From Escherichia coli (GTDB lineage Bacteria > Pseudomonadota > Gammaproteobacteria > Enterobacterales > Enterobacteriaceae), in the NCBI RefSeq assembly GCF_003334785.1, contig NZ_QOWV01000015.1: 64,000 nucleotides of DNA. The stretch is one strand, 5' to 3'. The position numbers were made by a program, and so were the translations under genes. This document shows, piece after piece, positions 20,046-55,737 of the stretch. The notes beneath the pieces were generated by a model, which had not been told where the DNA came from, ran no database searches, and was given only the letters and a program-made list of their open reading frames with translations. Each line of letters opens with the position of its first letter. Positions within the stretch are counted from its first letter, which is position 1.

Positions 20046-20387
20046 ATGATGAAAAAAAGTATTCTGGCGTTTCTGTTACTCACCAGTTCTGCAGCGGCGC
20101 TGGCTGCACCGCAGGTGATTACCGTCAGCCGTTTTGAAGTGGGTAAAGACAAATGGGCGTTTAATCGCGAAGAGGTGATGCTGACTTGCAGACCGGGTAA
20201 TGCTTTGTATGTCATTAACCCAAGTACCCTCGTGCAGTATCCTTTAAACGATATCGCACAGAAGGAAGTTGCCAGTGGGAAGACTAAAGCCCAACCCATT
20301 TCGGTGATTCAGATTGATGATCCCAACAATCCCGGCGAAAAAATGAGTCTGGCACCGTTTATAGAACGAGCTGAAAAACTCTGTTAA
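20046..20387 (+). CDS. yebY: Secreted protein YebY (DUF2511)
   Basis: 113-aa ORF with signal peptide, third gene of yobA-yebZ-yebY. Confidence 0.85.
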
Positions 20388-20416
20388 TTACCTAAAATAG
20401 CCTTTTGATTTCCAAT

Positions 20417-20458
20417 AAAAAAACCGCCTCAGTTCTTTCACCAGAACGGGCGGTTTTT
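20417..20458. terminator. Bidirectional rho-independent terminator (yebY / RyeA side)
   Basis: A-run, ACCGCC...GGCGGT stem with inner GTTCT/AGAAC pairing, then T-run. Confidence 0.6.
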
Positions 20459-20715
20459 AACATTTAAGCTGATGACCACCGCGCTTTTTATTGACCATTT
20501 TGCACGCAAACTGGAAAACCTGGCGTCGTCATCTATTCTTAAAGGGCAAGGCAACTAAGCCTGCATTAATGCCAACTTTTAGCGCACGGCTCTCTCCCAA
20601 GAGCCATTTCCCTGGACCGAATACAGGAATCGTGTTCGGTCTCTTTTTATCTGTTAAAAGCCAGAAGCATTTCCTTCGCTGACTTTATAGTCAACCATAA
20701 CACACACTCTACTGT
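20420..20715 (-). ncRNA. ryeA: RyeA (SraC) antisense RNA overlapping sdsR (ends approximate)
   Basis: RyeA is known to be transcribed opposite SdsR; ends inferred, not read from the sequence. Confidence 0.35.
20546..20648 (+). ncRNA. sdsR: SdsR (RyeB) small RNA
   Basis: GCAAGGCAACTAAGCCTGCATTAATGCC...GACCGAATACAGGAATCGTGTTCGGTCTCTTTTT matches recalled SdsR including its terminator; sits in the yebY-pphA spacer. Confidence 0.75.
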
Positions 20716-20782
20716 CTGAGTCCAGCATTTTTTAACATTCTTGTTAAGATTATGTGATCTTTAGCGCGGGAGGAAAATATTG

Positions 20783-21439
20783 ATGAAACAGCCTGCGCCC
20801 GTTTATCAGAGAATTGCGGGTCATCAATGGCGACATATCTGGCTTTCTGGCGATATACACGGTTGTCTTGAGCAGTTGCGCCGCAAATTATGGCATTGTC
20901 GTTTTGATCCGTGGCGAGATTTACTTATCTCAGTGGGAGACGTTATCGATCGTGGGCCGCAAAGTTTACGTTGTCTGCAGTTACTGGAACAACATTGGGT
21001 TCGTGCGGTAAGAGGCAATCATGAACAGATGGCGATGGATGCGCTGGCATCCCAGCAGATGTCTTTATGGTTGATGAATGGCGGCGACTGGTTTATTGCG
21101 CTGGCAGATAATCAACAGAAACAAGCGAAAACGGCGCTGGGGAAATGTCAGCATTTGCCCTTTATTCTTGAAGTACACAGTCGCACCGGCAAGCATGTTA
21201 TTGCTCATGCCGATTATCCAGATGATGTTTATGAATGGCAAAAGGACGTCGATTTGCATCAGGTCTTGTGGAGCCGCTCGCGATTAAGTGAACGCCAAAA
21301 AGTGCAGGGAATTACAGGTGCTGATCATTTCTGGTTTGGTCATACACCGTTGCGACATCGCGTGGATATTGGCAACCTGCATTATATTGATACCGGTGCT
21401 GTCTTTGGGGGCGAACTGACTCTTGTGCAATTGCAATAA
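20783..21439 (+). CDS. pphA: Serine/threonine protein phosphatase 1 PphA (PrpA)
   Basis: 218 aa from MKQPAPVYQRIAG; metallophosphatase motifs GDIHG, GDVIDRG, GNHE. Confidence 0.9.
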   Translation: MKQPAPVYQRIAGHQWRHIWLSGDIHGCLEQLRRKLWHCRFDPWRDLLISVGDVIDRGPQSLRCLQLLEQHWVRAVRGNHEQMAMDALASQQMSLWLMNGGDWFIALADNQQKQAKTALGKCQHLPFILEVHSRTGKHVIAHADYPDDVYEWQKDVDLHQVLWSRSRLSERQKVQGITGADHFWFGHTPLRHRVDIGNLHYIDTGAVFGGELTLVQLQ

Positions 21440-54005: not shown

Positions 54006-55691
54006 TTGAAGAAGGTTTGGCTTAACCGTTATCCCGCGGACGTTCCGACGGAGATCAACCCTGACCGTTATCAATCTCTGGTAGATATGTTTGAGCAGTC
54101 GGTCGCGCGCTACGCCGATCAACCTGCGTTTGTGAATATGGGGGAGGTAATGACCTTCCGCAAGCTGGAAGAACGCAGTCGCGCGTTTGCCGCTTATTTG
54201 CAACAAGGGTTGGGGCTGAAGAAAGGCGATCGCGTTGCGTTGATGATGCCTAATTTATTGCAATATCCGGTGGCGCTGTTTGGCATTTTGCGTGCCGGGA
54301 TGATCGTCGTAAACGTTAACCCGTTGTATACCCCGCGTGAGCTTGAGCATCAGCTTAACGATAGCGGCGCATCGGCGATTGTTATCGTGTCTAACTTTGC
54401 TCACACACTGGAAAAAGTGGTTGATAAAACCGCCGTTCAGCACGTAATTCTGACCCGTATGGGCGATCAGCTATCTACGGCAAAAGGCACGGTAGTCAAT
54501 TTCGTTGTTAAATACATCAAGCGTTTGGTGCCGAAATACCATCTGCCAGATGCCATTTCATTTCGTAGCGCACTGCATAACGGCTACCGGATGCAGTACG
54601 TCAAACCCGAACTGGTGCCGGAAGATTTAGCTTTTCTGCAATACACCGGCGGCACCACTGGTGTGGCGAAAGGCGCGATGCTGACTCACCGCAATATGCT
54701 GGCGAACCTGGAACAGGTTAACGCGACCTATGGTCCGCTGTTGCATCCGGGCAAAGAGCTGGTGGTGACGGCGCTGCCGCTGTATCACATTTTTGCCCTG
54801 ACCATTAACTGCCTGCTGTTTATCGAACTGGGTGGGCAGAACCTGCTTATCACTAACCCGCGCGATATTCCAGGGTTGGTAAAAGAGTTAGCGAAATATC
54901 CGTTTACCGCTATCACGGGCGTTAACACCTTGTTCAATGCGTTGCTGAACAATAAAGAGTTCCAGCAGCTGGATTTCTCCAGTCTGCATCTTTCCGCAGG
55001 CGGTGGGATGCCAGTGCAGCAAGTGGTGGCAGAGCGTTGGGTGAAACTGACCGGACAGTATCTGCTGGAAGGCTATGGCCTTACCGAGTGTGCGCCGCTG
55101 GTCAGCGTTAACCCATATGATATTGATTATCATAGTGGTAGCATCGGTTTGCCGGTGCCGTCGACGGAAGCCAAACTGGTGGATGATGATGATAATGAAG
55201 TACCACCAGGTCAACCGGGTGAGCTTTGTGTCAAAGGACCGCAGGTGATGCTGGGTTACTGGCAGCGTCCCGATGCTACCGATGAAATCATCAAAAATGG
55301 CTGGTTACACACCGGCGACATCGCGGTAATGGATGAAGAAGGATTCCTGCGCATTGTCGATCGTAAAAAAGACATGATTCTGGTTTCCGGTTTTAACGTC
55401 TATCCCAACGAGATTGAAGATGTCGTCATGCAGCATCCTGGCGTACAGGAAGTCGCGGCTGTTGGCGTACCTTCCGGCTCCAGTGGTGAAGCGGTGAAAA
55501 TCTTCGTAGTGAAAAAAGATCCATCGCTTACCGAAGAGTCACTGGTGACTTTTTGCCGCCGTCAGCTCACGGGATACAAAGTACCGAAGCTGGTGGAGTT
55601 TCGTGATGAGTTACCGAAATCTAACGTCGGAAAAATTTTGCGACGAGAATTACGTGACGAAGCGCGCGGCAAAGTGGACAATAAAGCCTGA
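54006..55691 (+). CDS. fadD: Long-chain-fatty-acid--CoA ligase FadD
   Basis: 561 aa from TTG start ([14 protein letters not shown]); AMP-binding signature [12 protein letters not shown]. Confidence 0.92.
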
Positions 55692-55710
55692 GCGTTAAGT
55701 CAGTCGTCAG

Positions 55711-55737
55711 ACGCCGGTTAATCCGGCGTTTTTTTTG
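55711..55737 (+). terminator. Rho-independent terminator after fadD
   Basis: ACGCCGG TTAA TCCGGCGT followed by TTTTTTTT. Confidence 0.7.

Follow-up and report, generated by a model that had tools for sequence, protein, structure and literature searches.

The sdsR/ryeA locus of Escherichia coli: a phage attachment site in the SdsR terminator and an antisense promoter that appears to be an integrase relic

Introduction

Which RNAs does the spacer between yebY and pphA of Escherichia coli encode, and why is one of them conserved across a whole order while its antisense partner is patchy and variable? SdsR (also known as RyeB) has been reported as an abundant Hfq-bound RNA of ~100 nt. Acting in trans and with the help of Hfq, on which it depends, it represses tolC and yhcB in E. 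coli and ompD in Salmonella; mutS has also been reported as a target in E. coli, and it behaved unlike a primary SdsR target in RNA-seq. In K-12, SdsR is made by the sigma-S RNA polymerase in stationary phase, and RyeA (also known as SraC) is made by the sigma-70 polymerase during growth (PMC6610125). The pair is already known, both genes are textbook E. coli, and their presence is ordinary in itself. The copy of the locus described here lies in a window of 64,000 nucleotides, that is, the whole stretch of DNA analysed (contig NZ_QOWV01000015.1 of the E. coli assembly GCF_003334785.1), and all positions are those of the window.

Identity of the locus

The yebY–pphA spacer carries, with a probability of about 0.93, the known E. 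coli sdsR/ryeA locus in intact form. The features of the locus are:

20046..20387, plus strand: yebY coding sequence (open reading frame and RefSeq annotation)
20415..20686, minus strand: predicted RyeA (SraC) antisense RNA, ~270 nt (K-12 annotation b4432 transferred; published ends)
20417..20458, both strands: bidirectional Rho-independent terminator, ending yebY on the plus strand and RyeA on the minus strand
20512..20539, plus strand: sdsR promoter of the sigma-S type (read from the sequence; conserved; features as in PMC3333887)
20546..20648, plus strand: SdsR (RyeB) small RNA, ~102 nt (RF00111; identity with K-12; published ends)
20614..20648, plus strand: SdsR terminator, a leaky hairpin with a U-run (scan, folding and comparison across species)
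20694..20733, minus strand: ryeA promoter, sigma-70 (published mutagenesis and geometry)
20727: rare SNP in the ryeA promoter region, with A here and G in K-12, located between the A-tract and the -35-like hexamer
20783..21439, plus strand: pphA coding sequence, a NinI-like Ser/Thr phosphatase (open reading frame and RefSeq annotation; phrog_246)

A 1-kb query around the locus is 100% identical to several complete genomes, and none of the 5,426 complete E. coli genomes lacks the locus. The spacer measures 395 bp (20388..20782), slightly more than the 390 bp given by the first-pass annotation. It aligns to that of K-12 MG1655 without gaps, and only three of the 395 positions differ (20466, 20481 and 20727), none of them in SdsR. 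The SNPs at 20466 and 20481 fall in the RyeA 3' tail. At 20727, the A of the window is found in 176 of 5,426 genomes (3%) and the K-12 allele in at least 5,209. The K-12 annotation places ryeA (sraC, b4432; 272 nt) and sdsR (ryeB, b4433; 104 nt) on opposite strands of the same spacer, and their coordinates carry over to 20686 to 20415 on the minus strand and 20545..20648 on the plus strand, respectively. The two Rfam families concerned, RF00111 and RF00101, belong to clan CL00105. Thus the window holds the same locus as K-12, with an identical SdsR, and the promoters, starts and terminators mapped experimentally in K-12 are all present and unchanged. RefSeq/PGAP genomes that are identical to the window over the spacer (e.g. 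NZ_CP026399.1) have neither sdsR nor ryeA annotated, and only the K-12 reference annotates both. The value of an explicit annotation lies in this omission of both genes from PGAP-annotated genomes.

SdsR and its signals

An Rfam search at the gathering threshold (38 bits for RF00111) finds SdsR_RyeB at 20549..20648 on the plus strand with 114.4 bits and E=1.8e-21, covering model positions 1-100 of 100. The sequence is identical to K-12 sdsR and begins at 20546, downstream of the yebY stop codon at 20387 on the same strand. Relative to the K-12 annotation, the experimentally determined start of SdsR is shifted downstream by 1 nt (Choi et al. 2019, PMC6610125) and maps exactly to 20546, so that the extent 20546..20648 proposed by the first-pass annotation agrees with both the end-to-end model match and the published start. 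The published 3' ends at +100 to +102 correspond to 20645..20647 (PMC6610125). The terminator that had been ascribed to SdsR is likewise found by scanning and folding, as an 11-bp stem at 20614..20642 followed by T5. This terminator is leaky, and read-through yields pphA mRNA (PMC6610125).

The sdsR promoter consists of a -35 hexamer TGGAAA at 20512..20517, a 16-bp spacer, a C at -13 (20533) and a -10 hexamer TATTCT at 20534..20539, followed by an A/T-rich discriminator with TAA at 20540..20542. These sigma-S features agree with the description of the sdsR promoter in PMC3333887, and sdsR is transcribed in vitro by the sigma-S holoenzyme alone (PMC6610125). Since the sequence is identical to that of K-12, SdsR of this strain would be expected to accumulate in stationary phase in an RpoS-dependent manner and to bind Hfq.

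A hexamer pair resembling a sigma-70 promoter, CTGAAA-16-TAAAAT at 20371..20398, overlaps the stop codon of yebY and precedes the sdsR start by ~150-175 bp. A heat-shock promoter of pphA reported earlier lies roughly at this place and was found to be inactive (PMC6610125).

RyeA and the limits of its covariance model

Three RyeA starts have been mapped in K-12, the most downstream of which corresponds to 20686 and the others to 20687 and 20688 (PMC6610125). The RyeA 5' sequence AAAGTCAGCGAAGGAAATGC is that of the published RACE primer. The published mapping of K-12 ends relies on primer extension, RACE and in-vitro transcription, and the RyeA 3' ends at +261 to +270 correspond to 20426..20417 (PMC6610125). 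Because these 3' ends fall in the minus-strand U-run of the yebY hairpin, the terminator at 20417..20458 is the RyeA terminator. It contains a perfect 10-nt inverted repeat, AAAAACCGCC/GGCGGTTTTT, flanked by an A-run at one end and a T-run at the opposite end, and it folds strongly on both strands (-19.8 kcal/mol, z=-6.4, on the plus strand and -20.6 kcal/mol, z=-4.6, on the minus strand), with a U-run 3' of the stem on each strand and U7 on the minus strand. The bidirectional terminator described by the first-pass annotation is therefore real, but it had been taken for a separate element, whereas it is RyeA's own.

The ryeA promoter has a -10 hexamer TATGGT at 20699..20694, a TG extension at 20702..20701, a -35-like hexamer TGGACT at 20724..20719 (19 nt upstream) and an A-tract at 20733..20728. 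A published oligonucleotide that swaps TATGGT for CTCGAG abolishes RyeA in K-12 (PMC6610125). The first-pass annotation had bounded the locus at 20417-20720; the contents of this interval are present as described, but its right edge cuts the ryeA promoter, which reaches ~20733. [quoted passage not shown] SdsR lies wholly inside RyeA at 20415..20686, and RyeA covers the sdsR promoter as well. From its promoter and terminator signals, a ~270-nt RyeA that spans sdsR and ends at the yebY hairpin is predicted for this strain.

The covariance-model check that had been suggested gives matches for both families, of which only one is informative. RF00101 (SraC_RyeA) matches 20652..20508 on the minus strand with 175.1 bits, over its full length and above threshold. 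However, this 145-nt model is the reverse complement of SdsR plus the SdsR promoter only, and it scores 124-169 bits in Yersinia, Serratia, Hafnia and Dickeya, in whose loci a scan for a ryeA-type promoter or an antisense terminator found neither. Because the model mirrors SdsR and matches genera that lack these scanned-for elements, the RF00101 match is no evidence for RyeA and cannot test for it, and the evidence for RyeA therefore rests on its promoter and terminator. The Rfam RyeA model should be used with this caution, as it cannot separate a real antisense RNA from the mirror image of SdsR.

Conservation across species and within E. coli

A comparative scan with the SdsR core, using one genome per species, yielded 120 Enterobacterales loci. 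Identity to the window is 0.66-1.0 over SdsR and its promoter (20510..20648) and falls to 0.26-0.5 immediately outside (110 sequences), and the key positions of the sdsR promoter are conserved at 0.9 or more in the same 110 sequences. In the 105 unique sequences compared from other species, base pairing of the SdsR terminator stem is retained without exception, and three of its pairs show compensatory changes. Of 106 species loci, 103 have a yebY homologue upstream in the same orientation, but pphA was found downstream in just 9 of 91 species. A hairpin with an A-run and a T-run, of the type of the yebY/RyeA terminator, is present in 51 of 115 loci, mostly of Enterobacteriaceae. The hexamers and spacing of the ryeA-type promoter are found in 25 of 115 other species, another, phage-borne block in 28, and neither of them in 62. 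Among 11 E. coli-type sequences, the spacer has 15 polymorphic sites, none of which falls in SdsR.

Several natural variants and records deserve mention. In one variant among the E. coli-type sequences, the A-run at 20417 is 1 nt shorter, which reduces the U-run of the RyeA terminator from 7 to 6. In another, a C to T change at 20695 converts the ryeA -10 hexamer from TATGGT to TATGAT, which is nearer to the consensus. Among the complete E. coli genomes, one copy of yebY-sdsR-pphA is assigned to a plasmid record. A perfect enterobacterial SdsR core also occurs in contigs labelled Martelella alba (an alphaproteobacterium) and "MAG: Flavobacterium psychrophilum", which is likely to reflect contamination or mislabelling.

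The SdsR terminator as a phage attachment site

The SdsR terminator is a live phage attB in E. coli. The site in the window is unoccupied:

20618..20649, no strand: phage attB, unoccupied (attL and attR of the prophage of strain CDE6306 compared with the window)

The locus is split into two parts in about 237 of the 5,426 complete E. coli genomes. Apart from one split caused by IS1, the loci that were sampled are interrupted directly behind the SdsR terminator, and integrase, excisionase, ralR and recET genes come next. Strain CDE6306 carries a complete lambdoid prophage of 40.6 kb at this point. Its attL and attR share 20618..20649 with the window except for three marker positions (20622, 20634 and 20643), and the crossover therefore lies within 20623..20633, which is the loop of the SdsR terminator. 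The attL junction is found in 228 of the 5,426 complete genomes (4.2%), including O26 and O103 EHEC strains, and the window holds a single copy of the att sequence. The reconstructed attP is contiguous in the phage record PP818812.1 (46212..46381), with 97.1% identity over 170 nt. This record was deposited as "Actinobacillus phage vB_Apl-pPE4", a host label that looks doubtful.

Because the crossover at the terminator loop brings in a phage-supplied 3' end, SdsR of the lysogens carries G89A and C98U, and the U-run of its terminator grows from 5 to 7. A more stable terminator in lysogens was considered and rejected, since the hairpin energy is unchanged at -15.3 kcal/mol and only the U-run differs. 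The native ryeA promoter and pphA are displaced from sdsR by 40 kb. In the ~4% of complete E. coli genomes that have a prophage in the SdsR terminator, integration thus rewires the SdsR 3' end, the antisense RNA and the sigma-S control of pphA.

IS1 insertion was also considered as the cause of the ~237 split loci and was rejected, as it accounts for one genome only and the rest are prophages. In that genome, strain FDAARGOS_944, a 768-bp IS1 lies inside SdsR with a 16-bp duplication of 20556..20571 (SdsR nt +11..+26), making it a natural sdsR/ryeA knockout.

The use of the site extends beyond one phage and one species. A lambda-family integrase lies within 600 nt of sdsR in 18 of the 82 species loci with enough sequence, at 70-140 nt from the sdsR 3' end. 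A tyrosine integrase family unrelated to this one (C-terminus ...MRYAHFAPDHLEDA...; phrog_1 and phrog_11531) adjoins sdsR in Buttiauxella, Rahnella and Serratia, and hence more than one integrase lineage targets sdsR. Prophages at the sdsR locus are on record for Cronobacter and Citrobacter. In PMC5495878, ryeA is named only as a differentially expressed gene and not as an insertion site.

The attB role is known in Salmonella and is quantified here for E. coli. According to Balbontin et al. 2008, as cited in PMC7380047 and PMC3333887, the attachment site of the Salmonella phage PhiW104 is the last 23 bp of ryeB. In the Salmonella ryeA/ryeB hot spot as those citing papers present it, attB is formed by the final ~23 bp of ryeB, and the 5' part of ryeA is replaced upon integration; at the E. 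coli site, the homology spans 20618..20649, the phage supplies a new SdsR 3' end, and the window is unoccupied. Phage integration at the 3' ends of tRNA and tmRNA genes likewise involves a crossover in a hairpin loop, and a phage-carried replacement 3' end regenerates the gene. Unlike those targets, the target in sdsR is the terminator of an Hfq-dependent regulatory RNA, and the replacement changes it by G89A, C98U and the longer U-run.

The downstream block of the 28 of 115 species is identical to the phage DNA at attL of the E. coli lysogens. In the lysogens and in these 28 loci, a strong promoter-like element, TTGTnA-N17-TGnTATAA, lies between the int stop codon and attL and points into sdsR. 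The "modified ryeA" that has been reported after lysogenisation probably originates from this element. Repeated CGAAAT(T)ACTCGAA motifs, which resemble integrase arm sites, are also present in this stretch between int and attL.

Origin of the ryeA promoter and of pphA

The ryeA promoter of E. coli seems to have been recruited from the decayed 3' end, ~22 codons long, of a lambda-family integrase gene:

20692..20757, minus strand: putative relic of a lambda-family integrase 3' end (~22 codons), holding the ryeA promoter (profile match)

The antisense block common to the 25 of 115 species downstream of sdsR, composed of an A-tract, CTGGAC, N19 and TGTTATGGT, is the ryeA promoter. In Leclercia, Silvania, Huaxiibacter and Escherichia sp. 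ESNIH1, this block is the end of an intact open reading frame of 362-373 aa (362 aa in the first three) that terminates in ...LLGHKNLTMTKKYLDARGAEYVMV*. The encoded protein is a homologue of lambda Int (E=1e-70 against PDB 1z1b), and in the alignment its His and Tyr residues correspond to lambda H333 and the catalytic Y342. Other species have truncated copies, of 120, 76 and 66 aa. An earlier reading of the block as a promoter conserved for itself was revised, as intact integrase open reading frames end exactly there.

When the four intact integrase 3' ends are combined into a profile, the best match in the whole window falls at 20757..20692 on the minus strand, with E=0.0042, a value to be read with the fact that three of the four sequences were first picked by a motif derived from the window. 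A broad profile of 12 integrase sequences places its top match at the same position, where it is not significant (E=4.9). A 3'-end profile built from all antisense open reading frames, which mixed unrelated genes, gave no match in the window. Compared with the integrase ends, the putative relic in the window has a 1-nt deletion in the Tyr codon. On this view, the Leu-Asp codons that follow the catalytic tyrosine would have given rise to the -35-like hexamer, and the Tyr-Val-Met-Val codons to the extended -10 element. The searchable literature was examined for a statement that the ryeA promoter derives from an integrase relic, and none was found.

PphA matches phrog_246, a NinI-like family of the lambdoid phage type, with E=3.5e-88, and the rarity of pphA downstream of sdsR (9 of 91 species) is what one would expect of a prophage remnant and not of a core gene. 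The order of sdsR, an int relic pointing leftward and a ninI-like gene pointing rightward matches a lambda prophage with an internal deletion, and pphA may be the surviving ninI gene of the same decayed prophage. Judged by these sequence comparisons, a lambdoid prophage appears to have left behind everything to the right of the SdsR terminator, namely the ryeA promoter, its leader and pphA. A second att copy that would mark the right edge of the old island was sought in the window; none was found, and the alignments were no better than those of shuffled sequences.

The antisense partner of SdsR is thus probably, although by no means certainly, not ancestral but a contribution of the phage DNA that happens to lie to the right of attB. 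In present-day lysogens, the different phage-borne promoter between int and attL would take over the antisense role. If this is true, it explains why RyeA/SraC is patchy and variable, a poor conservation that has long been noted, whereas SdsR is conserved across the order, and RyeA would be an example of a regulatory RNA whose promoter was born from decayed coding sequence.

Regulation known from K-12

In K-12, SdsR and RyeA form a duplex of ~100 bp that is destroyed by RNase III, so that each RNA promotes the degradation of the other, and the sdsR promoter is subject to interference by convergent transcription of ryeA (PMC6610125). The ryeA-ryeB pair forms the most abundant RNase III double-stranded RNA cluster in stationary phase (PMC7373196). 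Because most pphA mRNA comes from read-through of the leaky SdsR terminator (PMC6610125), ryeA transcription lowers pphA too. Since the DNA is identical to that of K-12 apart from the three SNPs, the same behaviour is predicted for this strain: RyeA would read through all of sdsR, stop at the yebY terminator, and restrain SdsR both by duplex decay and by interference.

SdsR-RyeA is itself one of the two founding examples of the type VIII systems, in which both toxin and antitoxin are RNAs (TADB 3.0: SdsR-RyeA and CreT-CreA). The two RNAs lie on opposite strands with complete overlap, as is also the case here. In K-12, SdsR has been reported to inhibit growth and RyeA to neutralise this effect. 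However, the toxicity was demonstrated by over-expression, through yhcB repression, and the over-expression experiments behind the toxin-antitoxin label come from one group. In addition, SdsR belongs to the ordinary core small RNAs that depend on Hfq.

Alternative readings of the spacer

The reading of RyeA as a regulator of SdsR has one competitor that is possible, if doubtful. Only SdsR may be under selection, and RyeA may be a lineage-specific by-product of a promoter in phage-derived DNA beside att, which titrates some SdsR and has no selected function. Such a by-product would agree with the end of conservation at the SdsR boundaries, with the reading of the ryeA promoter as an integrase relic, and with the distribution of antisense promoters, which are of the ryeA type in 25 of 115 species, of the phage-borne type in 28 and of neither type in 62. 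It is also consistent with the modest effect of deleting the sraC promoter, which raised SdsR only ~1.5-fold in one study (PMC3333887), and with the 4.2% of E. coli strains that live with the native ryeA promoter 40 kb from sdsR. However, mutation of the ryeA promoter in K-12 causes SdsR to appear earlier and pphA to rise (PMC6610125). The promoter hexamers and their spacing persist in relics that lack the integrase open reading frame, while the spacer between them has diverged, and the locus is fixed in 5,426 of 5,426 genomes.

The remaining alternatives concern what else the spacer might produce. It is improbable that the rare A at 20727 creates an additional -10-like hexamer, AAAAAT (20732..20727, minus strand), and thereby a RyeA isoform ~34 nt longer. 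The hexamer exists only with the A allele and lies 33 bp upstream of the mapped ryeA -10, and in Shigella and Salmonella a -10 ~35 bp upstream and a SraC ~35 nt longer have been reported (PMC3333887). However, the hexamer has neither a -35 element nor a TG extension in register, the 36-nt difference in other genera is a leader indel rather than a second promoter, and position 20727 varies freely among species. The A-tract is better read as Lys-Lys codons of the integrase relic or as an UP-like element, and a second RyeA start from the A allele is accordingly unlikely. That the SdsR sequence is chiefly the transcribed leader or attenuator of pphA, and not a free-standing small RNA, would suit the transcription of pphA from the sdsR promoter by terminator read-through (PMC6610125). 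The comparative data effectively refute this very improbable reading: pphA follows in so few species, whereas conservation of SdsR with its promoter and terminator extends throughout the order, the lysogens keep pphA 40 kb from sdsR, and SdsR has been reported to accumulate as a free RNA of its own size bound to Hfq. It is scarcely credible that the spacer encodes a small protein. Two small open reading frames do exist, one of 63 aa at 20491..20682 on the plus strand and one of 38 aa at 20554..20438 on the minus strand. However, the former begins upstream of the mapped SdsR start, its internal ATG at 20569 has no ribosome-binding site and its 3' part is unconserved, and the latter begins with TTG and lies in the least conserved part of the spacer, with an identity of 0.27-0.5.

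Other RNA families in the window

The Rfam search also reports two matches elsewhere in the window. The cspA thermoregulator RF01766 matches 36141..36601 on the plus strand with 135 bits, presumably at a cold-shock gene of the cspA family, whose 5' UTR and coding start it would cover. The small RNA sroD (RF00370) matches 55650..55735 on the plus strand with 115 bits over its full length.
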